Assembly: GCA_050084515.1 (NCBI GenBank)
Contig: CM114271.1
Span: forward strand, 26,474,001 to 26,538,000
Length of the DNA: 64,000 nucleotides
From: Blasia pusilla
Lineage: Eukaryota
Direction: 5' to 3'
Shown here piece by piece: positions 1,826 to 27,042 of this stretch; position 1 is the first letter of the stretch; each line of letters starts with the position of its first letter. Position numbers and translations under genes: made by a program. A model generated the notes under the pieces. That model worked only from the letters and a program-made list of their open reading frames with translations. It searched no databases and was not told the DNA's origin.

Positions 1826-4591
1826 TGCTGCTATCCAACTCGACCTCCCTATATTCTTCTCCCTAAACCGAACCTCTCAACGGCCCCTTCGCATCTATGA
1901 GTCGCACCCTCTGGACTGCCGCGTTCTGCCACTCTCTCAGAATTGCGCTCTAACGAAGAGAACACCGCGCGCATGGAATGCTGATTTCACTAACATACTC
2001 CGACTTCGCAGCGCATGACATCTTCTTCCACAGCTGTGATCCCCTCCTCATTCGGCGCTACCGGCGTCGAGGGCCTGGCCTGGGCACTCATGCTCTAGGA
2101 CTCACAGGACTCGCTCGCTTGCTCGCTCACTTCCCCACTCCCTCACTCACTCACTCACTCACGGGAGACCGCCTGAAGCGGCATTCAGATGTCTCCGTCG
2201 ACACGGAGATCATCACATCTCTTTCCCGACCCATGCTCCTGCGCTGTGCTCTCGACCGAGGCTAGGAGGCAATCCACGGCTTCACGCTCTAGGACTCGCA
2301 GAGACGAAGGTCCTCCGCGTAAACCGTACCCGCAGTGCACTCATCAAACACTAGAGCTCCTGACGATCGATCTCTATCGCATTCACCATACCGTACTCAC
2401 TCGAGCGAGGCCCTTTCCTCCCGTGCCTCCTCCCTCGAGCTACTCGGACGAATTCAATCTCAATGTCGTTCTCCTCTCTTGATGCCCCCCCCTTCCCCAC
2501 TGCGCCATGATTGTCCGCTGAAGCTCTCGCGGGGCAGGACGCACTACAAGAGTTCGTCGCACATCCGTCGACCTGCCCTCCCTCTCCCGCAGCACAAACC
2601 CAGGCAGCGACCCAGCGCCCGCCCGCCCGCCCGCCCGCCTGCCTGCCTGCTCGCAACTCTACGCCAGAGGAGACGCTTCCATCAAACGATGGAAATCGTT
2701 TTAAGACACGCCACGTTTCTAACACGACTCCCGGACACTAGCGCTGCGATCTCTCTTCTGTCTCTCTCCTGCGCTGGCTTCTCTCTCCCCACCCTCCCGC
2801 TCCAGTCTCGCACACACGTGACCGACTCCCTCCGGCCTACCCTCGGACTCGGCGCCAATCACGACGTCGCGACCTTCACATCGCTCTCTCCCTTCTATTT
2901 CTCCACGGCGGCCGCTGTCGCGCCACCGGAGAGCGTTCCCTCCTCCTCATCCCATTCGCACCGAACCAGACGGCGCGGGGAAACCGCGCACCGGCGCCTC
3001 CAAACTGGCGCTCCTCCAATGGGTCCGCCATCTCGCACAGTGCGGACCAGGAGAACGGTACACTTCACGTGGCAGCGCTGCGAGGATGGATGGAAGCCAG
3101 CTCGGGCTCCGTCCGAGTCAAAGGTTGACATTTATTTCTGTCGCCAGAGAGGCTGCCATTTCATTTGTCCTCGCGCTGTGCGGCTGCTCCCGGACTCTTG
3201 GCAGACATCCAACTACGGCCTCGCCACACCTTTAGCGTCCATACGCCGACGGAGATTAGCGTTCCAGACACTTCCAAATCCACTCTAATAATAAACGTCT
3301 CGGCATGGCGCACCTCAAAGCCCCGAATCTCGTTAGCTGCGCATATAAAGCCTCCTACAACATCCAAACATGAAACCCGTCAGTTCCGTCCTCATTATGG
3401 CACACTTAAGGGACCGGTGCGAACGCACTGCCGCTTTCCTTACTTCACCGCCCTCGCTCGGCAGTCCTGACTCCAGAGTCCAGAGTCGCGACTCCTGAGC
3501 GAGCGAGCTTTGGTCCTGAGCTCCTGACTTCGGTGAACCGGCGTTAAGCTTCCCAAGTAAAGTCCGAGACTCCGAGGGATCATTCCTCCGGAGTCCCAAC
3601 GGGCAGCGGGCAGACCAGGATAAGGCAGGCCATCCCGTACCTCGCAAGCGCTGTAAAAACTTGGCGCTGCATGTCTGTACTGTAACTCAGAAAGTAATGG
3701 CAGTATAGGACAAACGTACGTTGACATGATCGGGATAGTTACATCCGCCAAAGCGTACGAATTTGGAAAAAAGGATATTATTAATAAAATGCGAAATTCT
3801 TTAAAGAACCTCTGCTCAAAGCCTCAAACATCGCAATTTTCGAAAGTCGGACCAACGGAAAATTCCTTCATTCCCTTTTGTGAAACTTCCCTTTTTCATT
3901 CTTTTCCATCCACCTTTTCTTTTTTCGTAGCGACATCCCGAAGGACCCCCAAGTAATCGCATCGTATTTTGGGTTCCCTGCCATTTTAGTGCGGCTGCTT
4001 TGTTTTCTGTGAACTATGTTCCCGACTAGTCCTAACCTAAAAGTTGTGAGTCATTTTGTGGTTCCACTTAATCTTGTGAGATCGTATGGAATTTTTCTCA
4101 TGAGAAAAATCGTTCGGGATTAAACCCGATACGATGAAGGAGGACGAGTATATTAATCTTTCACACTTTAATATCATTGATTTTATTTCGTTCAATGTTT
4201 ACTTGTACATTGTGAAGATATGCATATACCAATTGATGTTGGAGTTGACTCACAACATTGTAGAGTTCTACTTCTATTCCTCCTCGCTATGCCGCGAAGA
4301 GAACTTGACCTTGAGTCCTATGAGCAAAAGACGAGAGTTAAGTCTCCAAGACCCAACCAATCACGTGTCTCGTAGGTGAGTCGGTGAAGCCATCCGACAG
4401 TAAGCAGTTATGAATCTCCCGAGGTGCATATAATTTCCCCAGGAAGGCGTTATCACTAATCCTTTGCCATTCTCCACCAATCTCTCACCCAAACCAGAGT
4501 CCATCCATTAATCAAGGCTGCACACGGACAAAGTTCGTGTCCGCGGACATGACGGTACGGGCCTCGGTATCTGTTGCCTGCACGCCTCACG

Positions 4592-6681
4592 TGTAGCGTA
4601 AACCTGGGCTCGCCACCCCACACCCATTTGGTAGCTCATACTAGACCCACTCAAGCGCACGCAGCCTATGCAGGCCGCACATGGGCTAGGCAAGGGCTCA
4701 TAGCTTGGACACCCATTCGATCCCTGCCGTGTCCTGCCACCCCCATACATGTTCCCATGTCTTGATCATATGTGGGCCACGAGGGTGCCAGAAAAAACCT
4801 ATCGGGTATGTCCGCCCCATGGATGGTCTTATTCGTTTCCATGCAAACTTGCTAGTAATCCTCAAGGTGTATCTCGAATGGTTCCTTAGCTCAAACATTG
4901 CCCAAACATGAAACATAGTCAGCTCCTTATTCCAAGCCTCCAACATGTATGAAGAGAGAAAGTCCCTCCCTCTAGATACTTATAGGGTCCTTGGTAGGAA
5001 AGTGGGGTTCCCACAAGAACTCCACTTTCCCAAACATCCATCCTAGCAAGATTGCATGTAGATGAAGTCCATGTCCATGGGCTTACATCTATTTCTTGCA
5101 ACCATGTACCCTAGGCCCTTTGTTGTGGTCCTCAACCCTAAATGTGGTTTGCATTTCACAAACCCATTTTTGACTAGGTAACCCCCAAGATGAGTTGGGG
5201 AGTCTCATGGAAGATTCTGCCATCTTTACTTCCCCAAAATCTCCTTGGAACCTCATTCGACATTTCATGTGTCTCATGGCTAACACATATCTTGACTCTC
5301 ATGATTTTCCATCTCATGTTTGTTTGAGGAACCTTTGTGTTTTGTCACTAGCCCAATGGTATTTCGCCCATCTTCAACTACTCTTGACTTCCTTGCTACC
5401 CGCCCTTAACTAAAATTTAGCTCAAGGGTCTTTCATCTATCTTACCTCATCCTCCTTCCCCATGAGTGGATACATCCCCTTTCTCCTAAGGCTAGTGTCA
5501 ATGTACATGCATATCTTAACTTGGGTTAGTCCCACGATATGCTTCATGGCCCACTCTAGTCTTGTGACTAGCTAGTCTAGGTTTTGAACTTGGTGGATCA
5601 TATCTAGGTCTTTCTTCCTTTGACTCATGATCATGACTTTCTTCTTGTCTCCCCATTAAAGTGAGCATCATTTTCTTGCGTCTACTCTCCTTGAACATCA
5701 ATCTTTAGTGTTGCATAAGCGTACATTCAGTAGGACACAGTCTCATTGTTGATCTGCACCCAAACACGCATTCATGTTAGTCGGGTCTGGATCAATCAGT
5801 GCTCCAACTTACCGAGCTCTTGACTCTGCCTCTCATCAAGCTCAACCTTTCTAGTTTCTCGCTTTATAACAACAGGAAGTCCTTCGAGACTTGGGATAAA
5901 ATTTCTGGTTGGTCTAGGGACCTCAAACTGCGCTTGCACGCCCGACGGTCCCATGTGTCCAATGGACCTCAAATAAATCCCTAATCGAGACTCACTAAAA
6001 TGAGTCATGGGTTGGAATCCAAGTGTGGCTTTTGAAATCCCCTCCCTCAAATGAGGCTTTGGTTCCGAATCCCAACACCAAACTCCCACTCTATTCCGAG
6101 CCCATGAGCCGTCCCATGGCACCCCAAAGTGGGGTTTGGGTCCCAAGCATCCTTGGAGACACTCCCCCTTACTACTACTTCCAGGGATCTCTGCCCTCCC
6201 ACTAACTTTGGGGAAAAGACAGACGGGCCCTTCTTTCTGGCCCTCAATCCAACTCTCGGTACAATCCATTTTGGGAAGTTTCTTAGCCTTTGCTTGTGGG
6301 TTTTCTAAGATCTTTGGTGCGTTAGAATTTTCTTTTCATAAGTTTTCCAACGCCACCTTACTTGTCCCAAACGCATCTTCGGATTGAACATTATGGTCTG
6401 AAACACATTCAAAACTCCAAACGCTAGTCGCATTCCAAATCCGGTTCTCACCTCTTTGGCGGCCAACCTTCCTAGACTAGACTCCTTTCAAGTCTTGGTT
6501 CACGTTTGGTCCAGGTTTCCTAATCATGATCATAAACGCATGAAACGCACAAACTCTATTCGTGCATTTTATCTTTTGCAACTATTCCACGAAATCTCTC
6601 CAAAGCGCAACCATCCTAACGTGAGCCCACTAAAGTTCTGATGTTTCACTTGGCGTTCGTTTGGTTATGAGGGTCGCGACA
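4592..6681. mobile_element. LTR-like sequence (probable solo LTR), degenerate
   Basis: Termini TGTAGCG...CGCGACA form a 6/7 inverted repeat with TG..CA ends. The last ~930 bp (from ~5745) align by eye with ~7955..8874. No TSD found; the left boundary is tentative. Confidence 0.5.
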
Positions 6682-7688
6682 GCCATAAACTCAATTTTTT
6701 GCAACATTGAATGGAAGTCTAGAATATTTGTTACAATTGCCCCTCGTTGTTGTTCACTAGCCTTTTCCAATCTATGCAAGTTTCCAATGTATGTTGTCTT
6801 TGTTATGAAAATTCTATTCAAAGAAATATGTTGAAATCATTTGTATAGTTCAGTCCATTATCCCAATTTCTCTATGAAATTGCTTTCTCTTCATCAAGAT
6901 TTGTATTGATCAACCAAGGATTCCAATTTCTATTAGAAAAAATATATTTTGAGATATCTTTACATATCAAGAGACTCCAAAACACATTTTCTCAACGTGT
7001 TCTATTTTTAAGTAACTTATAAAGGAAATATTGACTCATTATTTAATTATTTGGGGTCGTGTCATTTGGCAAAAAAAAGCTTTGCTTTAGAATTCTCTAG
7101 TGCAAATCAAAAATCTTTTGAGCTACATGGATTGCAATCTCAATTGCTCATACTCACACTCTTAGTACGAGGAGAGAATATCATTTGCTTGCCAAATATG
7201 ATTCAACCATATTGCACTTATCTTAGAATAAAAATCACTTGGTGGATCACTAGATCTCCTCATCCCTTTGCACCAAATTTCTTTTATTTTTTCTTGTTTT
7301 CTTTTGTGAGGGGGAGATGGAGAAGGATGCATATCGTTCAAAATCTCCAACAATTTTAGAATATTTAATGGCTATAATATAATTATCAATGACTGCAACA
7401 CATTAGTGTATATTTGCAAAATATCTCATATTTATGATTGTTACTCATCTGTTCTTGAAAATTCTTGCGCTTCTACATAGAATTGAGTGCAAGTTGTAAG
7501 CTTCAACAAAGAGTGTAATCATAACATTTTTAAAAATACCTCCAAATTTAGAATTTCTATTTTCCAAAATCAGAAGGTTTCCAAAAAATTGAGGTTTGTA
7601 AATAGTTCCCTTGAATTAAAGATAAACAGAATATATGAGTTGTCCGACTAGATAGGAGATAAGATGCACACATTTTAGAAAGGTCCAT

Positions 7689-8874
7689 TGTTCATAATAT
7701 ATGTTTTATGTATTGAAGATTGTGATATAGTCAAGTTCATCGGACACATGAATTTTTATATTTTAGTACTCACACAAAATAGAAACGCTTAATCTTGATT
7801 AATTAATTAAGCATGATTACTTTAGCTATGGTTAGTTGACCATGGTTAGGAATAGGGTTAAGGTTAAGGTTGAACACGTACAAAATCCATGTTCGACCCT
7901 AGAACAGATATGTCTGTGAGGGCTCAGGTTCATGCATCTGAGCTTGCACTCGTAACATTGATCTGGACTCGGCAAGCCTGCACGCACTTAGTCAGGTATG
8001 GGCCAACCAGCATTCCAACCCACCGAGTTCTCAACTTGGCGTCTCATCAAGCTCAACCTTCCTTAATTCCTAGTTTCCAAAATATGGCAAGTCCTTCAAG
8101 ACTTGGAACAGACTTCCTGATTAGTCCAGGAACCTAAAACGGCACTTGCGCGCCTAGCGATCCCAACTGTTCGACGGACCTCGTGCGAGTTCCAAACTGA
8201 GACCCAAGTAATTGAGTCGCGGGGTGAAATCCAAGAGGGATGTCTAAAATTGCCTCCGTAGACTTGGTTCAGGTTTTCCAACCCAACCCCAAACTCTCGA
8301 TCCGTTCCATGCCCTTGAGCCGCCGCATGGCGCCCAAAGTGGGTTCCGAGTTCCAAGCACTCTCGGAGACCTTCCCCCTTTCTAGTACTTCTAGGGTTCT
8401 CCAATAACCCCCCTTTTGGAAAAGGAGGGTTGGGCCCTTCATTGTGGCCCTCAACCCAACTCTACTTACAGTCGTTTCCGGGTTTTTTTCTCAGCCGCTC
8501 CTTATGCGTTTGTAGAGATCTTTAGTGCGTTTGAATCAAATTTCCATAAGCCTTCCAACGCACCCTTGTTTAATCCAAACGCATCTTGGAGCTAAAATTT
8601 ATGGTTATAAATACAGTCGGAAACTCTCAAACGCTAGTGGCGTTCCAAATCCGGATTCCTTCCTTTGGCAACCCACTTTCTAGACTTGACTCCTTTCAAG
8701 TCTTATTCCGCATTTGGTATAGGTTTCTCGGTCGTGAACACAACATCTGGAACGCGAAGCCTCGCTTGCGTCTCGTCTCTTGTCTCTTCTTCGAGACTAC
8801 TCCAACGCGCAAACCATCTTAGCGTGAGCCCGCTAGTGTTCCGCTTTGGCACTCGTTTGGTCATGAGGGTCACA
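7689..8874. mobile_element. LTR-like sequence of a family different from the downstream Gypsy 3' LTR
   Basis: TG...CA bounded. The right part is homologous to 5745..6681 (tctcatcaagctcaacctt, gactcctttcaagtctt, tttggtYatgagggtc). The left part (~7712..7865) is homologous to the reverse complement of ~29245..29410 (attgaaga.., aagttcatcgg, tactcacac, gcttaatcttg). Confidence 0.55.
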
Positions 8875-8885
8875 GTAGTAGTGGA

Positions 8886-10090
8886 GTGACACGGAGAGGA
8901 GTGAGATACCAAGGAGTTATGAGTGAGGAGCTACCTCGACATCTATCTGTGGCTGGATCGTCATCATTAGACACTGGGTCTGGTGACGAGGTGGCAGACG
9001 GAGGCAGTATCACTTGGCAGGAGATGGACGACATGAGCCATCGAGGCATGCGTCGTTTCTCGAGTGTTGTGGGCACCATTGACTTAGATGATTTTATCCA
9101 GGAGTTTGACACGTGGTGCGACTTCCAGGAGATACGGGCCCCGACACGGTTCAACCCTTTCATGGCATGGAAGGGGTTGTTCCAGCACTTGGAGGGTCCT
9201 CCGATGGATGACTACATGGAGTTTCGATCACTATATTCAGTAGAGATCGATGCCTGGAGGATGTATTGGGCTCCAAGGTATGTATCCACTAGTGATCGCG
9301 AGGCATATGATGGGATCGTGAGAGGAGAGAGACCCATACCATTAGCCCAGAGACTAGATGGAGAGGAGGGCAGTAAGACAGACAACGTGACAGAGACCTC
9401 TGGTGGTAGAGGGCCACCCAGCTTCAGCCCCACAGTGGAGTTCTTCCGACAGTTGGGGAAGAGCTACCAGGGCGTACGCACCAACAAGCTCAAGAGTCTA
9501 CAGGATTTTCAGCGACAATTGGGTTAGAGTCCGAGAGAGGCATTCACACGCATGAGGAGGCTGATCATTGCTACGTATGGAGTGACTGAGGCACAATCAA
9601 TCTAGTATTGGTACAGGGTTCTAGACCGAGAACTACGGAGGAGAGTCCGAGATGCGGTGCTGATTCATACAGCGAAGCCCACATTGAAGGTGGTCTTTGA
9701 GCTTTCTCAGCGTATTGAGCTCAACATGAGTGAGGATCAGGTAGTGACCGCTGGATTTTCTCGAGAGTCGACGGGTCCACGAGCGATGATGACCCCACAC
9801 GTGCCACAGCGAGCACCAATACCACGGGAGCGGGCCAGTGTGCCCAGAGAGCAGGGCGGGTACCGTGAACCTATGAGGCAACGACCCGTACCTACAAATG
9901 TTGCCCACCAGAGACCGATGTTATCTTGTTGGACATGTGGAGGGGCCCATAGGTAGAGAGACTCCACACAGCATGGGAGAGGACCACGGCGCCTCCGATT
10001 GCTCAGGAGCCCCAGAGGATGGCCCCACCACAGTACCAGTGGGACTATTGCCACATATATGGTCACACTAGGGATAGATGTTATGACCTT
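8886..10090 (+). pseudogene. Gag-like protein with two degenerate CCHC zinc knuckles
   Basis: ORF pieces 8886..9527, 9657..9956 and 10019 onward. DLDDFIQEFDTWC capsid-like segment; CWTCGGAH and (W)DYCHIYGHTRDRC knuckles followed by an RGG-rich tract. Confidence 0.75.
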
Positions 10091-10662
10091 CGTCAAGAGG
10101 CACGTCCAGAGGTAGGACGAGGGCCTGGGGGCGGTCGTGCTGGAGGAGGTCGGGGAGTTCTTCCTGGACGTGGTGGTAGAGGACCACCACCACCCAGAGG
10201 AGATAGAGCAGGAGCACCAGAGCCAACACTTCTCTCATGCATCGATCAGTTGGAGCAGAGGATTACTGCCATGACGATGATGCAACTCAGGGAAGGCACG
10301 GAGCCGCGAGCAGCTAGTGTGGCTCCAGCTTCTACCTCTTACCCTGACCCGGGTGAGGATCTCGCATGTATGGGGTTTATGTGTAGTGCAGCCCAGGTTG
10401 AGACAACTGCAGTGGTGACTCGGAGTGCTACGAGAGGCATTGAGCCATCGAGAGGTGGAGTTGAGATTGACCCACCAGAGGGGAACAATGGGCGGCAGGC
10501 CAGGGTTCCACAGTCATTCATATTGTTGGAGGCACTACACACACCATCGATGGTGCCTCGGCAACCAGAAGTGCCTACAGCTCAGGAAGGTACGTGGACG
10601 TCACGAGGAGTTGGAGTGACAACTCCTATGCCGGCTCGAGTGGAGTCAATGTCGACCATAGT

Positions 10663-10869
10663 GTTGGAGGTGGCCACCAGAGTGAGTCAGACTCCACTAT
10701 TTTCCGCCATAGAGTTGGCGACGTTGGGAGTTGGAGGTGGCCAACAGAGTGAGTCAGACTCCACTATTTTCCGCCATAGAGTTGGCGACGTTGGGAGTTG
10801 GAGGTGGCCACCAGAGTGAGTCAGACTCCACTATTTTCCGCCATAGAGTTGGCGACGTTGGGAGTTGGA
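10663..10869 (+). repeat. Tandem repeat, 3 x 67 bp plus 6 bp
   Basis: Unit gttggaggtggccaccagagtgagtcagactccactattttccgccatagagttggcgacgttggga at 10663, 10730 and 10797, with one substitution among the copies. Confidence 0.97.
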
Positions 10870-11089
10870 CCAGTTGAGGTGTTCTGGTTGGCCGCCAAGT
10901 TATGTGAGCGTGGAGAGATGACTGCTTCTTGTTCAAAGGTAGTTGAGGAGGTGGTGGCTTGCCCTCACAGCCGTTGCTCGGGACGTCCCCCACAGAGTCA
11001 TGGCATGCGGCGGCGGTGAAGTTCGTAGATATACTAGCTCGACCGACCATAGAGCTAGCGGTGGTGACACTTGGAGTAGTGTTACTGGA

Positions 11090-11480
11090 TAACCGAGCTA
11101 GAGTATTTTGCTTGGTTAGTCCCACAGGGAAAGTTCACCACCCGCAACGCGTCCTACTTGATTCAGGAGCGTAACCCTCGATCTTAGGGAAGGCGGCGTG
11201 TTGAGCGTTGGGGTTACAGAAGGCCGACATTGAGCCTTGTCCCTTCCACATACAGACCTCGATTGGGGGCGTGTCATCCAAACAATATATGACCCGACAG
11301 GAGATAGTTGTCAAAGTCCAGCCAGAGCATGCGACGGATAGTTCTATGGTGCGCACACGTGCGATTACGACACCAGATGAGTCATACGATATGTTGGTGG
11401 GGAGTACAGTGTTCTATCCCCTAGGATTCATCCTTGACTTTTGGGAGGAGATTGTTGCTTATCGGCCAGGGTGGTGGTGA
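11090..11480 (+). pseudogene. Retropepsin-like aspartic protease domain
   Basis: RVLLDSGA catalytic motif (~11148..11171) and a downstream YDMLVG flap/helix-like segment; internal stops. Confidence 0.85.
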
Positions 11481-11885
11481 GGTGACAGGCGGATGAGTCA
11501 GTTACCTGTGCGGTTTGCGGGACAAGATGGTCGATCACGAGGCGATTTTGTGACCACGTTGGCAACTTTCACAGGTAGTGTTAGCTAGCTAGGAGAGTTG
11601 TTGGAGGGGAACGCACATGCGGAGGATGTCCCAATAGCAGATAGTCCCACGGAGAGACAAGCCATGGCGGGTGTCTCTTCCCATGTTGGCAAGACCTCTT
11701 CACCATTGTGGGATACGAGACAAGAGCTATAGAGGAGTGCCAACGACCTCGTGAGGCAGGCGTGGAGTCATGCCTTTATCCCAGAGCAGCAAGAGTCAGG
11801 TGGCGATCGGGCTCTTGGAGTGGAGAGATTGACCCCACTGGATACCACACCCGTTGTGTGGTAGTGTCCAGAGGAGGGTGGTAGG

Positions 11886-12842
11886 GTGTTAGATCTCTTT
11901 GGAGGGATTAGCACTGGATTGGTTGCAATATTGCAGGCGGGCATACGAGTGCATACGTACTTTTATGTGGAGAGAGATGAGACCGCACGGCGAGTATCAT
12001 TACGTCATGTGGCGAGATTGGTCCAAAGGTATTATGAGTTGTTGTCGGTATCTGCAGTTCGGGGATATCAACATACACTACCCGCCGACATCTCTTTGGT
12101 GGGGGCGCAGGATCTGGATAGAGTTGGCACCATTCATTTGGTGATTACAGGATGGCCATGTTAGGGTCATTCATCAGCTTGCCGAGGATTTGGATTGCAG
12201 GATCCGAGATCAGGGATATTTTGGGAGATGTTGCGAGTAGTACGACACTTGCAAGAGAGTCAGACATGTTCTCTAGCGTACATTTTGGAGAACATGCCGT
12301 TGTTGGGAGACATTCGTGCACGTGTGATGACGAGTGTGCATCAGGTGAGGTCCTGGTTGGGACCTGTTGTGTTGCTAGATGCAGCGAGTGTTGGATCACG
12401 TGCCCACCATCCACGACTATGGTGGACAAACCTGATACCATCAGAGGTACTGAGTCGAGCATATGATGGAGTCCAGAGAGCACCACATGTCACAGTGGAT
12501 GCTATTTTGGGCTCAGGGCGTTGATCTTAGGTGGTGACGCGGGATGATAGACCACCGTTGGCGATGGCCAATAGGGTGGGGGAGTTGAGGGCAGCCTTAT
12601 CTACGTTGGTGACCTTCCCAGCATCCCATGCCTTTTGTCAGGGAGGGCCAAGCATGATTTGGGATGAGGTGACCCGAGCATTAGAGGAGCCTACAGTAGA
12701 TGAGCGCAAGCGCGCCATGGGGTTTGTTATGGGTACTACGGCGGTGCCAGGTATGATTGAGTCATCATGGAGACAAGTGTTGGGGCAAGCAATGGACCTC
12801 AACTGTCTTACATGGATAGTCAACCTAGGTATGGCTGAGTAG
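11886..12842 (+). pseudogene. DNMT3-like C5 cytosine DNA methyltransferase domain embedded in the retrotransposon Pol frame
   Basis: One frame with three stops (TAG 12162, TGA 12522, TAG 12528). Motif I VLDLFGGISTG (DNMT3A VLSLFDGIATG); motif II YVE; motif IV LVITGWPC*G with the catalytic Cys; motif VI YILENM; motif VIII LDAASVGSRAHHPRLWWTNL (IDAKEVSAAHRARYFWGNL); motifs IX/X DERKRAMGF..TTAVPGMIESSWRQVLGQAMD ([28 protein letters not shown]). Confidence 0.92.
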
Positions 12843-13239
12843 AGACGGATGTGAGTGTCATCCATGTCGTCACGTCCACGAGTTGGACCATTGCCTACAG
12901 GGTCTGTACAGGCATTGGCTGGGGACGGGACGAGGAGAGATAGGCATCCATGGACTTCCTAGGATGTCGTTTGAGCAGAGAGTGCAAAGGCGGCCACAGT
13001 AGCACGTGTCATTTTTTGGATATGGACCATGGTGTAGGAGGTCAGAGTGGAGTGGCTGTTGCGGAGGTGGCAAGGGTTGCTACATAGCAACCAAAGTCGG
13101 AGGTTGCGTCCTCTCCGAGTGAGGTCACGATGGAGACTTGGGAGCCTGTGATAGGTTGCAAGTTGATAGGAGGAGAGCGACGGCGAGTTCATAGGTTTCT
13201 GAGAGGGGGCATGTCAGTTGTTTTTCCTTCAGTATGAGA

Positions 13240-14040
13240 GACTTGGGTACGCTGAAGGGTCCCGAGATACGAATTGAGTTGGCTAGTGATACGTGAATCT
13301 TTTGTCGACCCTACAGGTATTCTGATATGGAGCGAGCCTTGATTCAGAGCAGGAGTCATAACTTGTTGGAGGCAGGAATTGTGGAGTTATCACATGAGGA
13401 GTATGCATCTGCCACAGTCATGACGGAAAAGAAGGATATGTATGGCAATTGGATGGATAGGCGGATGTGTGGAGAACACCGTCCTATCAAGCGACATACG
13501 AGGTCAGATCGATACGCCATGCCTACTCCTGAGGAGATCTTTGATGCGGCAGGGCATGCAAAGATCTTCAGTACTTTAGATCTTCGTGTTGGCTATCATC
13601 AACTTCCTATCACCTTGGAGGACAGGGAGAAGACAACATTCTGGGGGATAGATTGGTTCGGGAGAGATTGCTTGTATTAGTGGCCGTTCTTACCTTTTGG
13701 GTTGAAAAACGCGCCTGCAAAGTTTCAGAGAGTGATGGATAGGATTCTGGCTGGCTTAGATTTTGTATGATGTTACATAGATGACATTCTTATCTTCAGT
13801 TCCACGGTTGAGGAGCATGAGCGACACCTGGAGGAGGTGTTTTGGCAAATGCAATTACATAGACTGAAGTTACATATAGGCAAGTGTAGATTCTTTCAAG
13901 AGCAGATTGAGTACTTGGGACACATCATATACCTGAGTGGGTTAGGCGTTCAGCAGACGAAGATGGAGGGTATTGCGCAGATTCCATGCCCTACAGATGT
14001 GAGTAGAGTTCGAGGGTTTTTAGGACTGTAAAACTTCTAT
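13240..14040 (+). pseudogene. Ty3/Gypsy reverse transcriptase
   Basis: RPYRYS, DRYAMPTPEEIFD, FSTLDLRVGYHQL, LPFGLKNAP, YIDD (13774..13785), KCRFFQEQIEYLGH, VRGFLGL. Confidence 0.97.
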
Positions 14041-14199
14041 CGACGGTATGTCAAGGATTTTAGTGCGATTGCAAAGTCTTTGATCTTGTTGACGAGACTT
14101 GATCAGGTTTGGTTGTGGGGAGATGATCAGGAGCGAGCATTTCAGGAGCTCAAGGACATCTTGACATCCTCACCCATTTTATAGAGACCGGTTAGGGTT

Positions 14200-14565
14200 G
14201 CCCATTCCACCTACATACGGATTGGAGCATGTTGGGTCTAGGAGCAGTGCTTACTCAGAGGGATGACGAGGAGAGGGAGTATGTTGTGGCTTACGCGAGC
14301 CGATTGAACAACATTGTAGAGGCAAAGTACAGCTCCTACAAGGGAGAGTGCTTGGCTGTAGTGTGGGTTGTGGCATATTTCAGGTGCTATTTATTCGGAA
14401 ACCCTTTCACACTTATCACTGATCATCAGCCGTTGAGGTGGTTGATGGAGTCCGACAAGCTTACGTGAAAGCTTGCCATATGGGCTATTTTACTACAGGA
14501 GTATGAGTTTGAGGTGGTTCATAGGACAGGCCGGCTGAACCAGGATGCGGATGGGTTGAGTCGTA
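14200..14565 (+). pseudogene. RNase H domain
   Basis: HTDWSMLGLGAVLTQ, VAYASR, YSSYKGECLAVVW, TDHQPLRWL, NQDADGLSR. Confidence 0.95.
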
Positions 14566-14939
14566 ACCCATGTCCGAGTTAGAGAGATGATACAAGAGCT
14601 CGATGGCATGGAGAGAGTGATGAGGAGATGGTGCCCGGTTGGCATGCATCTGCCTATCTTTGTTGGTTGACTATGGTAGGTCACCATTGGTGATGACTCC
14701 AGTGGTGGGGTTGGATGATGAGTCTTTGGATGCGGAGGTCAATGAGGAGGCGACAGGTAGTCGTGATATCCATGACGACGTGGAGGTTGTGGAGTTTTTG
14801 CGCATTGGCGTCATAGCGAGCACAATGAGTGCTAGGGAGCGAGATCGGATCCTACAACGACCCAGGAGGTTCACGTGGGAGGGGATTCACATTTTGCGGG
14901 TATGGGGAGATGGTAGGATACGAGTGGTACCTCATCCTT

Positions 14940-15990
14940 CTCAGTGAGCACGTGTAGTGCGACATGCCCATGAGGAGTTGGGACATTTGGAGTAAAGCGT
15001 ACTTACAACTTACTCCAGATTCAGTATTAGTGGCGTGGCATGCATACTGGGGTACAGCAGTTTGTCGCAAGATGTATGGTATGTGACAGAGTGCGAGTAT
15101 CCTTCAATGCTCCCACTCTGCAGTTACATCCTTTGTCGATTATGGGTTCAGGTTATTGGTGGATTTTAGACTTTGCGAGACCTTTGCCATTGACGGGGCG
15201 TCATCACCGGTACGTGTTGGTCATGGTGGAGCATTTCTCCAAGTGGATAGAGTTGGTGGCACTATCGGACAAGGCGAGCGAGGGAAAAACCTATGCATTT
15301 CCAGATTGTGTGCTTAGTCACTTTGGTGAACTGGCGGAGGTGTTGACTGACCAGGGTACCGAGTTCAGGGAAGAGTTTCAGGCCTTGTATGATTAGGCGC
15401 TGATAGATCACCACACCACGTCCAGAGATCATCGTGAGGCGGATGGGTTGGCGGAGAGAGTAGTACAAACGGTGAAGAGAGGATTGCGCAAGTATGGCTT
15501 GCAGCGAGGACAATTGAGGGAGTGGGACCTATAGTTGTCATGGTTGGCTATGGGTTATCGCTTTAGTCGGAAGGCATGCTTGGTGTCATTTTCACCATAG
15601 TTTTCCTCTTTGGGAGAGAGTCAGATTTACCTATAGCTATTCAAGATGACATGGCGGAGGTGTTAGATCTTGATGATCCAGATATGTGGGTACAAGCGTG
15701 TTCTCAAAGGGCGGAGATTTTTCGTAGAGTTATGCCTAAGGCCTTTGAGAACTTAGCTATTGCTCAACAAAGAGATATATTGAGGTACGCGACCATTCGT
15801 GGAGGAGGTTATCGTCCATGGATTAGGAAGTTTCATCTTGGAGATTACGTGTATTTATAGCAGGCGGCACCCACGACGCTAGATGTCACTGCAGGGCGCA
15901 CGATCCTATGTGTGCACGAGGTATTACCAACAAGAGTCCTCATGTTGGAGGGACCGGATGGTATGGTTTGGAAGGATCATGTGGGAAATT
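14940..15990 (+). pseudogene. Integrase (HHCC zinc finger plus DDE core)
   Basis: AHEELGH...CMVCDR; ILDFAR, LTDQGTEF, GLAERVVQTVK; stops and frameshifts present. Confidence 0.95.
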
Positions 15991-16065
15991 GTGCACCATG
16001 TCATCTTTCGAACATAGACGGGGACAGTGGATCTGAGCTTCGCAGTGGTACCTGCAGGCTTGAGG

Positions 16066-16212
16066 TGTATGTTGTGCCGATCTACGAGGGATGCAGCCAC
16101 CATGTTAGTATGTGATGGTTTTTCTCGAGGGTGGCATATGTCATGTCTGAACGCCCCCCTCCTCCTCGATGTAGTTCCCACAAGATGATGGATGTGTCCA
16201 AGATGTGTATAG
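16066..16212 (+). pseudogene. PHD finger at the Pol C-terminus
   Basis: CMLCRSTRDAATMLVCDGFSRGWHMSCLNAPLLLDVVPTR*WMCPRCV*: C4HC3 spacing, with the fourth Cys changed to Phe (TTT) and one internal stop. Confidence 0.88.
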
Positions 16213-16279
16213 GGTAGTAGGTCATGTCAGAGAGATGTGATATTTTCTATCTGGAGTTGGGGGGATCCAACTGCCAACT

Positions 16280-16289
16280 AGGGGGGCGG
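16280..16289 (+). promoter_or_regulatory. Polypurine tract of the Gypsy element
   Basis: agggggg(c)gg lies about 70 nt after the pol stop and just upstream of TGT at 16291. Confidence 0.7.
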
Positions 16290-16428
16290 TTGTGTGATCT
16301 CCATGTATATGTATGAGTTGATTTTTGTACATGTGTGGATCGACCCGTGTGTGGGGAAGATCGATGTCGTGTGGTGTAGATGTGACCAGCGATGCATGTT
16401 GTGTAGCGATACGTATGCGCACAACAAC

Positions 16429-17042
16429 TGTCACATTTGAGTAGCCGATAGGCTGAGATCGTGGATAGGGCGTAGGAGCCAGTGGACTATCTTGAGTGTA
16501 ACTTTTTCCCACGGTGTCGGATGAGGTTGAGTATAAGTCCATTATGTCAGGAACGTTGTTTTTGATAACTTTCTTGTTGAGGTCTTTCACAACCGGGTGA
16601 CTTGTTGACCAGGTCAACCGCCCCTGGTAGCCTGTGTGCGTAGGTTACCAAGGAGATGGCTATTTTTAGGGTAAGAGCCTTTTGGCTCTTCCCAACCCTG
16701 TATAAGAGAGGAAGATGGATTTCCTAAGCCATCTTTCTCATGTTGGGCCGTTAGAGCACCTCTCTTGTATGTGTGTGAGATAGGACTAGGGTGCTAGCGT
16801 CCGGATTCCTTGATAGCGCAAGGTGGACGATGCTCGATATGCCAATGTAGATTGAGGAGTGGAGATTTAGGCCGGGTGTGTCATTTTTACTACTCTTTAT
16901 TTTTGTTGTGTGATCTCCATATATATGTATGAGGTTATTTTTGTACATGTGTGGATCGACCCGTGTGTGAGGAAGATTGGTGTTGTGTGGTGTAGATGTG
17001 ACCAGCAATGTATCTTGTGTAGCGATATGTATGCGCACGACA
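16429..17042 (+). repeat. 614-bp 3' LTR of the DNMT-Gypsy element, preceded by a 136-bp copy of its own 3' end (16291..16426)
   Basis: TGTC...GACA terminal inverted repeat; TATAAG at ~16701. Segments 16291..16426 and 16907..17042 differ at 12 of 136 positions with no gaps. Confidence 0.7.
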
Positions 17043-18057
17043 CCGATCAAATTAATGGTGCTCAAAGAAGTGGATGTTGAGAATCCAGCAATTGTAAGAA
17101 CAAGACTCAAGGCAAAAAAATGTGTCTTGTTGTTGAACTCGCTATATGCGTAGAAGAATAAAATTTGATCTAAACATGTCTTTGGTGAACTAGGAACTTA
17201 GAGCAAGTATTCGATTGTGCTAGGGAATAGAACTTGAGAACTAGGAAAACAAGTAAAAAATATTTTATAAGAAATTAAGTGTGTAGGAAAGAATATGAGA
17301 ATTGATTCGACTATGAGATAAATCCATGGGGATCTTGTGTAAAGAAGCACAAGGTATCTCTTTGAGAAAGCGATGCTAGAGCTGGTTGGGAATTAGGATA
17401 ATAGGATCTAGATGGGTCATTTTTAAAAGTAGGAGGGAATGCTGCATAAGACACCAAAACCAATAATTGTTGAGGATCCAAAGGCATTGTGTGTAAAATT
17501 AGCACCAAATATCTCTTTGAGTGGGATATTCTAAAACTAGTAAATCCGAGGGGATACAACGTGGTAAATAGCTCTAGCTAGATGTGTTCTTGGATATTGG
17601 AAATTGGAACTTTTGGCTATTAAAGATGGAGTTGGATCTTGTGATAGTTGAGTTTAGATGGTGTTTAAAAGAAAAAAGGCATAGGAGTTGTGGGCCATTA
17701 GAATATGGCAAAGTCTCAAAAGAGTAACACAAGATATATCAATAAAGGAGTAGACAGCAAATCAAATGGTTGTAAAAACTCTAGAAGAGTATTATCTTAA
17801 CTATCTTCGCATAAGCTCAAGTTCTTAGGAGACGTCGCAATGATATCGTAGGATCTTAAGGATGTAGTGTCATACAACCTACCAACTCAACACCATATGC
17901 TTGCCAAGTTGGATTATGGGACCAAATCACATGCAATACTTAGGAGAAATAACCAAGCCAAGACAAGGGAGCATAATCGAGGATGTGCCTCATAAGTTGT
18001 ACTAGTCATGGATATTGTGTGGCAGATGAAGAGAGTTGAAGATGTATTGTGTGGTTG

Positions 18058-18760
18058 AATTTCAAGATTTAGTACATTTTGGTTATTCAATAAGTGTTAT
18101 GCTTGAAAAAATATAACATAGCTGATGGAAAATGAATGCAAATACTTGTGATGAAAAAATTCATGAGAAAATTTTGGAAAATAGGAAAATAAGAATAAAT
18201 TATTTATTGTGAAGAGTGAAAATTTCAAAAATATCAAAGAATATGGAACACTTGTATAAAAGTTGACTTATGTAGTGGCTAATATTATTGATGGCATTTT
18301 TTCAATTTGGTGATGAAGAAATTATTTAAAAATGAACAACAAAGTATTTTTAACCATTGAAAGAGGGGGCACTCCTTGACTATGGATCCAACGATATTTG
18401 TGTGAGTGAATGATTGGATAAGTTTATGATTTAATTTCAAGATTTAGTATGGTGTGTTCAGTTGATAAGTGTTGTGCTTGACAAAACATGAGAGACATGA
18501 TGGAAAATGGATACAAATATTTATTATAACAAAAAATCATGAGAAAATTTTGTAAGATGGGAAAATAAGAAGGAATTATTTGTAGTGAAGAATGAAAAAA
18601 ATTAGAAAATAGAAAAAAACATGGAATTCTCCTATAAAAACTAAATTATGTAAAGGCTGTTATTTTTATGGTATTAAATTATTTTTTTAGAAATAAAAAA
18701 TCATATGATGAATAAATTAATTAAAAAATCTAGCAAAGTTTTTTTACCTTTGAAAGAATG
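18058..18760 (+). repeat. Old tandem duplication, ~375-bp period, AT-rich
   Basis: aatttcaagatttagta..ataagtgtt..tgatggaaaatg..tcatgagaaaattttg..gaaaataagaa occurs at ~18058 and ~18433. Confidence 0.8.
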
Positions 18761-24164: not shown

Positions 24165-26425
24165 GGGGAAAAAAAAAAAGAAAGAAAGATGCACTTCGAT
24201 AAAAACGAGTGATGGAAAACCCATCGGAAGTTAAAAGAGGGGACTCAAAGAGTCAAAACCTGAAGGCCACAACACGACCAGAAAAGGAAGAAGGGGCATT
24301 CCCCCTAACGATAAAACTCACAACAACAGCAGAGACAATATCAGCAACAACAAAGAGAGCTATGACTACTACTAAGTGGGCCTCTAGCGCCGGCGTCTCC
24401 CAAACTGAGCCCGCCGCAAAATCCCATTAGCCTGGGCACGCGCAACGCTATGGAGACCCACCGCCTACAATATAGAATCGCAGATTAGCTAAGGACAACC
24501 CATTTTCGAGTGGAGATGATGGCGCGATCCGTAATGAACAGTCGAACCTCTCCCCATAGCCCCATACATCTCTATGGCCGTGGGGATGAAGATGTGTCCT
24601 CGTGTAGTCGATCAGAGATATGTGTCTTCTTCGCCGCCCGCCGCCGCCCGCTCCTTGTAGCATTCGCCCTTGGGCCACCACTTGGGCTCGTGACCGCTCC
24701 CGCGAGGATGCAGTGACTACCACGTCCGCCACAACCACCTCAGCCTCACGTGTCATGTAGAGATCGGCACGAATGAGGGAATCCCGCAAGAGAGTAGTGC
24801 CTCTCTCTCGCACATGGAAGCCACTCTCCCGAGCAATCGAACATGATATCCCCGAGCATCGTGAGTGGCTATCCTCTCACCCCAATCGACAGCGTGCCAA
24901 ATGCACACCAAGTGGATTGGCTCGCGACACTCGCAATGTGTCGAACCAACCATCGATGGTTGGGGAGGCCCAAGCGGAACCGCATCGCTGTGGTATAGGT
25001 AAGTGGTGCGAACGGAAAGCTGGAGAAGGGGCGCGCCCCTACCCATGAGCCTGCCCCTTCCGGAGCAAGAGCGAACACGGGGCCCTAACCTCCATGGGGA
25101 TATTCCGGGACATAGTGCCTCTAAAATGCCTCAAAGTGGGCTTCCATCAAGGAAGATTGGAGCCCAGATCGACCGGAGGTAACTAAGGAGGAGAAAGTGG
25201 GGAGAACCGCTCGGCCTCAACTCGAAGGGAATCTCTACAAGCGTGAGTGAAGACTGAAGTGGGAAAGAGCCATCCTCGACACAGGAGACGAGTGTAGAAG
25301 GAGCGGTCTATCTCTAACCAAAAATCGGGAGCAAAGGAGGGGTGCCACTATGGCCCAACTCCTAAAAAAAAAGCGGAGGGCGCCACTAACTCGGTCGAGA
25401 GAAGACCTACTCCACCAAAAGAAATCGGCCAAGAGGCCTCTCACGAGCTAACTCCCCCATGGGGCACTCTAAGGAGCCGGGTCCTAGAAGATCCCCAAAC
25501 ACGCATGAGCTTCCTATCAAAGGATCTATATAGGGAAGAAAGGTGACTAGATGTCCAGACGAGTTCTAGTGAGGTAACCAGGTCTCTGAGCAAAACAAGA
25601 AGAGAGAATGCCGAAGGCGACTTGAGGGTCACCAATCCTCGTAAGATCATCAACGTGAGAAGATCCTCGTAAGAGGCCACGAAAGTCGATACAAAGTCCT
25701 GGCTCCCGAGCGGTACTCCCAAGACTCGAAGCCCCTCCACAGTCGCAAGAAGCCGTCGGGTAAATGTAGATCATCACGTGAGGCCTAATGGAGACCAAGC
25801 CTTGCACTTCCCCACCTTCACCGCAAGACCGACACGTGCCAACCGGCTTTGAAAAGTGCTCGAATGCAGGACAACCAGATCTCCGGGACCAACAATATGA
25901 GTATCATCATGTTTAAGGGAACATGCAACCCGGAAAGCCTCCACCGTAGAAAGAACCGCTCGGTAATGAGCCCACAGAAACAACGCGCCACCCGGAGGGT
26001 CACCCTGACGAGTCCCGGTGACTCCAAGACCGTGACCTCCTCCTCGAATCGACCATGGTGGAAATAGAGGGCCGAAGGGGCCCCATAAAAAGCCTGCACA
26101 AAGGGAATGAGGCTCGCCATGGGGCCACCCGCGTCCCTCAACTCTGTGAATATAGTAGCCCGAGATACTGAGTTGAAGGCGTTCTCCACGTCCACTTGGA
26201 GAACCACCCACTCTGGATGTACATCTAGACAAGCCCTCAAACCTAAGGCAACCGTCTCACATCCGGCGGGCGTGGCAACTCCAAACTGGTGCGGACTCAG
26301 ATGTGACTGGAAAGCCTCACGGAATTGCAAAGCGAGAGTACGACTCACCAACCGCAAGAGCACCTCACCTATGGCAATCGGACGGATACCACCACCCCCC
26401 TTTGACAACGCCAAAAGTCGCCCCG
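24165..26425 (-). mobile_element. 5'-truncated CRE-clade-like non-LTR retrotransposon (RT, CCHC, restriction-like endonuclease), frameshifted
   Basis: RT: LSKGGGGIRPIAIGEVLLRLVSR, PHQFGV, QVDVENAFNSVSR, GTRQGDP, DDTHIVG. Zinc knuckle: CEC..GVHLARC..GERIATHDA. RLE: RADLYM..VVADVVV..GHIFIPTAIEMYG. Confidence 0.9.
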
Positions 26426-27042
26426 CCCCTAAAGAAGGGGAAAAGAAGGTGTTGGTGAATCCACTTTCTCGCGCTTATTATTATGGATCGGATGGATGGT
26501 TTGTTGGAAGGGGCTCGCGGAGCGGCCAAGCTAAGCGAAGGGCCGTTCTAAAGAGGGTTGGACAACGATCGTAGCAATGGAGGTCCGCTTTAGCCGACAA
26601 AAGGGAAAAGGGGTTAATGCTCGTAAGGAGAGACGGCGTTCCAAGAAGTCTCTGTCCGCCACCGACACCAAAGCGGAGCGGATGGACGCAGATGGAGGAG
26701 GAGCGGCATTGACACCGGTGTCCGGCAGGCAGCAGGGCGAAATTAAAAGAGAGAAAAGCAAAAGCAGCAAAACGAAGATTCATCCATTCAGGCTTCTATT
26801 CTTTTTTTTCCATAAATCGGAATTCCGTAGATGCAGCAGCAGCAGCAAGCAAAAGCCCTCCTGGACACCCGGATCACTGCAGGCCACAGCAGGCGACTCT
26901 GGATTTCGTTTCCGGAGGGGAGAAGCGAGATTGGAAGACAGCGCGCGCGACGGTGAATCGATCGCAGGAAGAAGGCCGTGATATTCCTTATGCACGCAGG
27001 TCGTCAGCCATGAAGTTCCTTTCCCTCTCTTTTACTCCCGGC

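Follow-up and report, generated by a model that had tools for sequence, protein, structure and literature searches.

We have analysed a stretch of 64,000 nucleotides from Blasia pusilla (assembly GCA_050084515.1, contig CM114271.1, positions 26,474,001 to 26,538,000 of the forward strand), which is called the window below and is numbered from its first letter. The segment between 8.8 and 16.2 kb is one dead copy of a high-copy Ty3/gypsy long terminal repeat (LTR) retrotransposon family, and our analysis confirmed that positions 16066-16209, at the end of its Pol, encode a genuine PHD finger that is disabled in this copy like the rest of Pol. Pfam searches on stop-to-stop plus-strand pieces (about 8.8-16.2 kb) and on read-throughs with X in place of stop codons, combined with tblastn, gave the domain order gag-PR-DNMT3-RT-RNase H-IN-PHD with a single Pol (PR, protease; RT, reverse transcriptase; IN, integrase; RNase H is shortened to RH in domain strings). 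The parts of the element are as follows.

8823-9971, plus strand: gag-like region (open piece 8823-9524; tblastn with residues 1-316 of P0016 on 9024-9971, 52% identity)
10663-10869, plus strand: 67-bp unit in about three tandem copies, gag/linker (self-blastn, 10663-10802 against 10730-10869, 98.6%)
11013-11471, plus strand: aspartic protease region with LLDSGA (tblastn with residues 961-1113 of P0078; LLDSGA within 10947-11171)
11865-12839, plus strand: DNMT3-like C5 cytosine methyltransferase domain, in one frame (PF00145 on the X read-through P0002)
13165-14187, plus strand: reverse transcriptase (PF00078, E = 4.5e-12 on 13771-14028; tblastn with residues 19-380 of P0122, 66% identity)
14196-14672, plus strand: RNase H (PF17917, E = 1.7e-28 on 14196-14465; tblastn with P0064, 79% identity)
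14714-15603, plus strand: integrase zinc-binding region and catalytic core, in two frames (PF00665, E = 4.3e-10, and a weak PF17921, on 15031-15393; tblastn with P0122, 54-81%)
15537-16022, plus strand: helical and SH3-like module at the integrase C-terminus; its last residues read CAPCHLSNIDG (translation P0003; tblastn with residues 812-971 of P0122, 65%)
16019-16023, plus strand: shift in reading frame from integrase to PHD, next to a run of G (tblastn; reads with one base absent at 16020 and 16022)
16066-16209, plus strand: PHD finger, C4HC3 (PF00628; relatives 59-71% identical)

From the tblastn alignments with relatives, it is clear that the window holds a single copy of the element, broken by at least six frame changes. 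This copy is colinear with the Marchantia polymorpha gag-PR-DNMT model P0016 over 9024-12971 (38-55% identity) and with the RT-RH-IN-PHD proteins P0122 and P0064 over 13165-16206 (54-81% identity), and both Pfam and these colinear matches give the PR-RT-RNase H-IN order of a Ty3/gypsy Pol. No Pfam family matched the gag-like region 8823-9971. In the gag-to-protease linker, the copies of the 67-bp unit are 98.6-100% identical, and since 67 is not a multiple of three, one peptide of the unit is read in all three frames. The methyltransferase read-through P0002 (11733-12959) contains six in-frame stops and reaches PF00145 at E = 7.5e-5 (22.7 bits, cut-off 22), with the motifs LDLFGGISTGL, GWPC, ILENMP and SRAHHPRLWWTNL still readable, and the integrase C-terminal module carries one in-frame TAG at 15858-15860. 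A strong positive GC skew of 0.18-0.28 (G over C on the coding strand) was also seen across 10001-18000, unlike the flanks, and may be either a trait of the family or an outcome of strand-biased decay.

The PF00628 match to 16066-16209 has an E-value of 1.1e-9 and a score of 38.6 bits, against a curated cut-off of 24, and aligns residues 17-63 of the window peptide (with X at the stop) to the full profile (1-47 of 47). This peptide, read in frame 1 of 16018-16209 with X for TGA, is TGTVDLSFAVVPAGLRCMLCRSTRDAATMLVCDGFSRGWHMSCLNAPLLLDVVPTRXWMCPRCV, and its ligand pattern is LRCMLC-x11-C-DG-F-SRGW-H-MSC-x15-X-WM-C-PR-C-V. The codon of the first ligand is TGT at 16066-16068, and the Pol stop TAG (16210-16212) follows directly after the finger. 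Three lesions are evident in this copy: the fourth ligand is Phe (TTT, 16120-16122), leaving seven of the eight ligands of the C4-H-C3 set; a TGA stands in frame inside the finger at 16186-16188; and the finger frame differs from that of the integrase C-terminus, the change falling at 16021/16022 beside the run of G, as located by tblastn with intact relatives.

A first-pass annotation made from the letters alone had reported a C4HC3 pattern at the end of Pol that escaped the track of open reading frames (ORFs). The pattern is indeed present at these positions and the Pfam check was positive. Its invisibility is likewise consistent with what we found, since the open piece with most of the finger has 56 codons (16018-16185) and falls below the 60 residues usual for an ORF listing. 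An E-value of 1.1e-9 lies far beyond chance, even if 64 kb are read in all six frames.

The finger as the last domain of the integrase

A search with the 64-residue window peptide among longer proteins returned 12 matches with 59-71% identity. Marchantia polymorpha and Sphagnum fallax are among the species named for these models, and the integrase core (rve) and the PHD share one ORF in three of the matches. All eight ligands are present at normal spacing in 8 of these 12 closest matches and are damaged or shortened in the other four (P0010, P0013, P0014 and P0015). The 90% cluster of the best match comprises several Marchantia models annotated as 'PHD-type domain-containing' and one from Calypogeia fissa.

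We have also examined long polyproteins, defined as matches of the IN-PHD part of P0011 among proteins of at least 1275 residues. There are 31 of them: rve is listed in all 31, PF00628 scores above its cut-off in 30, and rve and PHD share one ORF in 30. Two cluster members show the window's domain order without interruption, namely P0078 (2811 residues, PR-DNMT-RT-RH-IN-PHD, with a weak aspartyl-protease Pfam match at 1004-1095) and P0080 (2391 residues, CCHC-DNMT-RT-RH-IN-PHD, with a weak match for the CCHC knuckle), and in both the finger lies at the very end of the ORF (last 3-12 residues). We aligned 42 relatives that share 40-89% identity with the first. Of the eight ligand columns, seven do not vary at all, and the remaining one is conserved in at least 90% of the sequences; P0080, seen in a separate alignment, is an exception with His in this column. 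Integrase residues C151, H152 and L153 are invariant in the same 42 relatives, in which the CAPCHL motif about 20 residues upstream of the finger is also conserved; the SH3-like module of the integrase closes with a conserved CAPCHLP.

In chromoviruses, the chromodomain sits directly after the integrase C-terminal module. No chromodomain family was found by Pfam in the integrase C-terminus or finger of the window, or in the 38 relatives scanned. The earlier proposal that a PHD is fused in frame to the integrase C-terminus, in the chromodomain's place, is thus borne out by the intact relatives, and so is the retention of the Cys/His ligands in intact copies. Judged from these sequences, the finger is an integral, conserved and in-frame last domain of the integrase in intact relatives.

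Sequencing reads carrying the same organism label gave a view of the family beyond the window copy. Reads were placed on 15000-16700 at a likeness of at least 85%, sampling about 1 in 100 of one genomic run. Of the 75,924 genomic reads placed, only 641 were at least 99% alike, meaning that the family is high in copy number and that the window copy is an outlier in it. At position 16121, G replaces the window's T in 1249 of 1409 and in 1296 of 1454 DNA reads, which restores a Cys codon at the window's Phe in about 89% of them. Around the slip, 639 of 1997 reads lack one base at 16020 and 35 of 2281 lack one at 16022. The variable loop of the finger is three bases shorter in most reads, with two bases absent at 16164 (795 of 1064) and one at 16167 (789 of 1060).

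The PHD-element family is transcribed. Three RNA-seq runs cover 15000-16700 at a depth of about 5-70, and loose ends of the RNA reads run in frame from the integrase into the linker to the finger. Nearly all RNA first mates lie on the minus strand; in most stranded libraries, first mates on the minus strand mean sense RNA. Almost all RNA reads are less than 95% alike to the window, so that the transcripts stem from other copies rather than demonstrably from the window copy. As to how the window copy decayed, it has T or A where the family has C or G in 24 of the 40 best-supported differences within 15000-16700, the stops at 15394 and 15858 among them, and its decay has therefore proceeded mainly via C-to-T and G-to-A changes. 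This looks like cytosine deamination, in a family that itself encodes a cytosine methyltransferase.

These data also bear on whether the Cys/His pattern could have arisen by chance, or be a captured fragment of a host PHD gene. The state of the window copy would fit such an origin, as its finger is out of frame with the integrase, contains one stop and has lost one ligand. Against it stand the PF00628 E-value, the same finger at the close of integrase ORFs in dozens of relatives, drawn from several sources, and the reads, which mostly encode Cys at the window's Phe and in a third of cases lack one base at the slip. We give this origin practically no credence, and have rejected it on the Pfam E-value, the fused ORFs of the relatives, the ligand conservation and the reads.

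Finger type and pairing with the methyltransferase

To place the finger among characterized ones, an intact family finger was compared by sequence with the PDB, which gave 94 matches. Among the best 60 of these 94, the top entries are CHD4 PHD1/2, KMT2C, PHF12, KDM5B PHD1, DPF3, PHF21A/BHC80, ATXR5, KDM5A PHD1, KAT6A, UHRF1, AIRE and BAZ2A/B; the same best 60 include no DNMT3 or ATRX ADD and no finger of the ING, BPTF or TAF3 type. The AlphaFold model of the Marchantia protein P0006 has a pLDDT of about 88-93 over the finger (residues 171-220). When this finger was searched with Foldseek, it superposed on DPF2/DPF3 with a root-mean-square deviation (rmsd) of 0.6 Å (42-44% identity), on BHC80 with 1.0 Å, on BAZ2A bound to an unmodified H3K4 peptide with 1.4 Å, on ATXR5 bound to H3 with 1.7 Å, and also on BAZ2B, so that a PHD fold is evident from deviations of 0.6-1.7 Å. 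The fingers of DPF2/3, BHC80, BAZ2A and ATXR5 read the unmodified H3 N-terminus.

The conserved residues point in the same direction. H3K4me3 readers such as BPTF and ING2 have a cage Trp two positions before the ligand His, a position that holds Gly in 90% or more of the family (n = 42). The MLLCD stretch before the third ligand and the PP-x-x-x-P-x-G-x-W loop are conserved as in H3-tail readers. By sequence and model, the finger thus resembles the readers of the unmodified H3 tail, and it is a plain single PHD rather than an ADD.

Our best overall explanation, to which we assign a probability of roughly 0.6, is that the window holds a dead gypsy copy whose PHD is the conserved end of the integrase and would serve H3-tail tethering in intact members. 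In such members, the finger would tether the complex of integrase and cDNA to nucleosomes via the H3 N-terminal tail with unmethylated K4; insertions would thereby tend to avoid active promoters, a role comparable to that of the chromodomain in chromoviruses. We somewhat favour such docking of the integration complex by the finger on H3 tails without K4 methylation, with insertions steered clear of active promoters, in view of the sequence and model likeness described above. The DNMT3-like domain would be a separate accessory of the same Pol, with its catalytic motifs kept.

Several points weigh against this explanation. The H3 specificity is inferred from likeness to solved fingers, and because only the best 60 of the 94 PDB matches are considered, readers of me3 may be among the rest. 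Fingers of the liverwort type lack acidic residues just before the first Cys, which several H3K4me0 readers use. The window copy itself is non-functional, and the filter of at least 1275 residues favours elements with extra domains. Finally, the LTRs are unpaired: a sensitive blastn comparison of 16213-18200 with 3000-9200 found no similarity that would define the element ends.

The lack of acidic N-terminal residues would also suit a non-histone role of the finger, such as binding a host protein, nuclear import, stabilizing the intasome or acting as a zinc-stabilized C-terminal cap, since PHD-like folds also bind non-histone partners. Whole-model Foldseek matches to the Tudor-PHD cassettes of PHF1, MTF2 and UHRF1 have rmsd values of 12-14 Å; they are therefore mute on the domain arrangement and show only that an SH3-like barrel precedes the PHD. 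On the other side, the closest matches of the finger are true H3-tail readers (E from 1e-13 to 1e-18, rmsd 0.6-1.7 Å, 35-44% identity), and the MLLCD stretch and the PP-x-x-x-P-x-G-x-W loop are kept. We consider a purely non-histone role improbable.

A DNMT3-type domain lies within the Pol ORF of a Gypsy element both in the window (PF00145) and in P0078 and P0080, where it shares one ORF with RT and IN. All 25 PDB matches of the Marchantia P0016 domain are DNMT3A, 3B or 3C, and among 53 non-redundant DNMT segments of the family the catalytic Cys is kept in 49 and the EN of motif VI in all 53. With the generic Pfam model, 17 of the 31 long polyproteins score for DNMT at E ⩽ 0.01 (14 at or above the cut-off); with a profile made from the DNMT segments of the family itself, 27 do. 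Both PHD and DNMT are present in 26 of the 31, PHD only in four (P0046, P0050, P0053 and P0062), and DNMT only in one (P0063).

A wider HMMER search with P0064 covered 1.84 billion cluster representatives, and the best 150 were ranked by summed score, a ranking that biases this set. Both domains occur in 54 of them, PHD only in 19 (some being N-terminally truncated ORFs), DNMT only in 7 and neither in 70. Seventeen of these 70 were scanned. Most are run-together models in which RT/IN sets from more than one ordinary gypsy element are joined, and the 17 contain neither PHD nor DNMT nor chromodomain; they are uninformative on a sister lineage. The expectation that PHD and DNMT would co-occur across the family is therefore upheld in the window element, in the long polyproteins and in the nearest cluster representatives, with the addition that PHD members lacking DNMT exist.

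Two domain orders were found. In order (a), that of the window, DNMT precedes RT and the finger lies at the very end; in order (b), the arrangement is RT-RH-DNMT-IN-PHD, and 100-400 more residues follow as a tail. Between the two orders, the DNMT domains are 28-41% identical. In a tree of the IN-PHD region, most of order (b) falls into one clade (72 rows, SH-aLRT support 97), with order (a) in deeper branches, and a DNMT-less clade (P0046, P0050, P0053 and P0182) is nested inside the order (b) clade. This tree is effectively unrooted, as the PHD-less outgroups P0234 and P0259 do not fall on one side and P0234 lies inside the family, and it is thus mute on which of the two domains, finger or DNMT, was acquired earlier.

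Some further matches were noted in proteins of order (b) and of the RT-RH-(DNMT)-IN-PHD type. A G-patch match lies between DNMT and integrase in P0045 (2030-2073, 24.0 bits) and P0054 (1247-1291, 21.9 bits), the cut-off being 22. The tails after the finger of P0044 (1958-2000, E = 0.0037) and P0062 (1752-1795, E = 0.00044) give weak matches, below the cut-off, to the D12 class of N6-adenine methyltransferases, and recall the DAM-carrying LTR elements described in passages of the 2026 bioRxiv preprint 10.64898/2026.05.21.726589.

Since the two domains so often travel together, they might form one reader-writer unit in which H3K4 sensing directs or activates the methyltransferase at the insertion or on the cDNA. 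Such a unit would be in keeping with the pairing in 26 of the 31 long polyproteins and in 54 of the 73 PHD-bearing representatives among the best 150, with the adjacent Marchantia locus tags Mp_8g15430 (DNMT) and Mp_8g15440 (PHD), and with the kept DNMT catalytic motifs. In order (b), DNMT lies directly before the integrase, so that one mature DNMT-IN-PHD protein is conceivable. The ADD domain is specific for unmethylated H3K4, and the likeness of the finger to H3K4me0 readers would give it the same specificity.

The architecture argues otherwise. An ADD, in which a GATA-like finger, a PHD and a helix adjoin the methyltransferase, was not found: the matches are of the PF00628 type only, and the finger is a single canonical PHD with no ADD among its best 60 of 94 PDB matches. 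In the window's order, RT, RNase H and IN separate DNMT from the finger, which follows some 1,040-1,100 residues downstream, so that intramolecular coupling of the ADD kind is unlikely; a protease is present as well. Fingers are also kept where DNMT is absent, for P0046, P0050 and P0053 have no room for it between RNase H and IN and lie inside the DNMT-bearing clade, and the DNMT-bearing P0063 has no finger. We regard the reader-writer unit as doubtful, and the ADD-like logic at which the element may have arrived independently, as suggested in the first-pass annotation, is unlikely for the window's order; for order (b), where DNMT abuts the integrase, it may hold. If a unit of this kind did exist, it would be an independent retroelement version of the ADD-methyltransferase logic of animal DNMT3, methylating the insertion as it is made.

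On the scale of the clade, at least 54 clusters at 50% identity carry both domains, in the two domain orders. It is conceivable, and in our judgement rather unlikely, that this represents a large and old Ty3/gypsy clade with an epigenetic kit, comprising a DNMT3 writer and a PHD reader of the H3K4me0 type, in which the DNMT-integrase-PHD proteins of order (b) may choose H3K4me0 chromatin and methylate the insertion.

Element ends, repeats and flanks

Downstream of the finger, three further features were recorded.

16253-16290, plus strand: two purine/G-rich tracts, GGAGTTGGGGGGA and AGGGGGGCGG, candidate polypurine tract (direct reading)
16289-16437, plus strand: start of a high-copy repeat, probably the 3' LTR, and first copy of a 149-bp direct repeat (89% identity to 16905-17053)
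16905-17053, plus strand: second copy of the 149-bp direct repeat (self-comparison)

From 16289 on, reads with this organism label are about twice as deep as inside the element. Directly before 16289, 1588 genomic reads depart from the window and carry instead the stretch that precedes the 16905 copy, and it seems that the terminal region holds tandem sub-repeats in many copies of the family. Several read joints of the 'goes back' kind fall at 16288/16289. The finger had earlier been placed just before the polypurine tract, and this is plausible and partly supported. The G-rich tracts stand just ahead of the high-copy repeat, and the blastn comparison of 16213-18200 with 3000-9200 found no paired LTR.

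On the upstream side, a direct repeat of about 900 bp (5777-6675 and 7988-8871, 70% identity) lies before and overlaps the gag start, with an AT-rich stretch (GC 0.37) between its copies. A second, older piece of 5' sequence from the family or an unusual terminal-repeat structure may account for it, and apart from the 149-bp repeat no other internal repeat turned up when paired LTRs were sought. Elsewhere in the window, the minus strand of 2-1876 carries a plant-type leucine-rich repeat (LRR) receptor-like ORF with LRRNT_2 and LRRs (LRR_1, E = 1e-62) that runs off the window end and is in keeping with a plant host, and a GC-rich island holds an RT fragment on the minus strand at 25818-26474 (PF00078, E = 2.9e-8), which the proteins of the PHD-element family did not match in tblastn.

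Comparison with known systems

The window copy is an ordinary dead relic, and the interest lies in the consistent pairing across its family, which offers a concrete and testable case of a mobile element that pairs a putative chromatin reader with a writer of DNA methylation. The questions that follow are whether these elements land by histone state, whether they set their own methylation, and whether the finger is kept for targeting alone, as the DNMT-less PHD relatives would suggest. Because Marchantia is tractable and has published chromatin maps, and because the family is transcribed, insertion-site and peptide-binding tests are realistic.

The family is like animal DNMT3A/3B in that a DNMT3-type catalytic domain is encoded together with a finger of the H3K4me0 reader class. 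Unlike the animal ADD, which consists of a GATA-like finger and a PHD directly N-terminal to the methyltransferase, this finger is a single PHD located C-terminal to the integrase. The green-algal PHD retrotransposon REM1, said to have been described by Perez-Alegre in 2005, reportedly has an integrase region with both a PHD and a chromodomain.

The PHD is a common accessory domain of transposable elements, according to passages of PMC6673714, PMC8557442 and PMC9940879. In the passages of these three papers on algal PHD Gypsy elements, no DNMT is named in the same element. A legend in PMC9940879 places the PHD of Chlamydomonas Gypsy-7a_cRei between RNase H and the integrase, whereas that of the window family follows the integrase. 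Chromoviruses are the Ty3/gypsy elements whose integrase C-terminus bears a chromodomain (Gao et al. 2008, as cited in PMC6673714). By analogy with them, the window family has a small putative reader right after the integrase C-terminal module, which would direct integration to chromatin; it differs from them in having a zinc-binding PHD for the chromodomain, with the unmodified H3 N-terminus rather than H3K9me as the likely ligand.

Elements termed EpiLTRs, from hosts such as Cymbomonas and Euglena, are LTR elements with DAM, DNMT and chromodomain, as presented in passages of 10.64898/2026.05.21.726589. Like them, the window family combines a DNA methyltransferase and a predicted histone reader within one Pol. 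EpiLTRs have a chromodomain as reader, a DNMT reported as sister to DNMT4, and a DAM, whereas the window family has a PHD as predicted reader and a DNMT3-like domain. The streptophyte Gypsy-DNMT3 is named in passages of the same source as a separate acquisition.

Passages of PMC5890265 (de Mendoza et al. 2018) describe a DNMT3-type methyltransferase in the Pol of a Gypsy element of Klebsormidium nitens (KnitGypsy-Dnmt3), and the window family likewise has a DNMT3-type domain in the Pol ORF of a streptophyte Gypsy, with conserved catalytic residues. Compared by description, the two differ in that the named relatives of the window family are liverworts and a moss. The legend of KnitGypsy-Dnmt3 gives a DIRS-like A-coding-B-A-B arrangement, and such a layout could not be demonstrated in the window by blastn of 16213-18200 against 3000-9200. 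The term 'PHD' occurs 0 times in the main text and legends of PMC5890265 and is absent from its text supplement; a PHD may be drawn in Fig. 4c or the PDF supplements, which lay outside this search. In the literature searched, no text was found describing an integrase-terminal PHD and a DNMT in one element.

Taken together, both domain types have previously been published in such elements, and the present family is a modest extension rather than a categorically new one. It adds a liverwort family to the Gypsy-DNMT3 elements already described, and the PHD that ends its integrase is an accessory domain of a familiar type.

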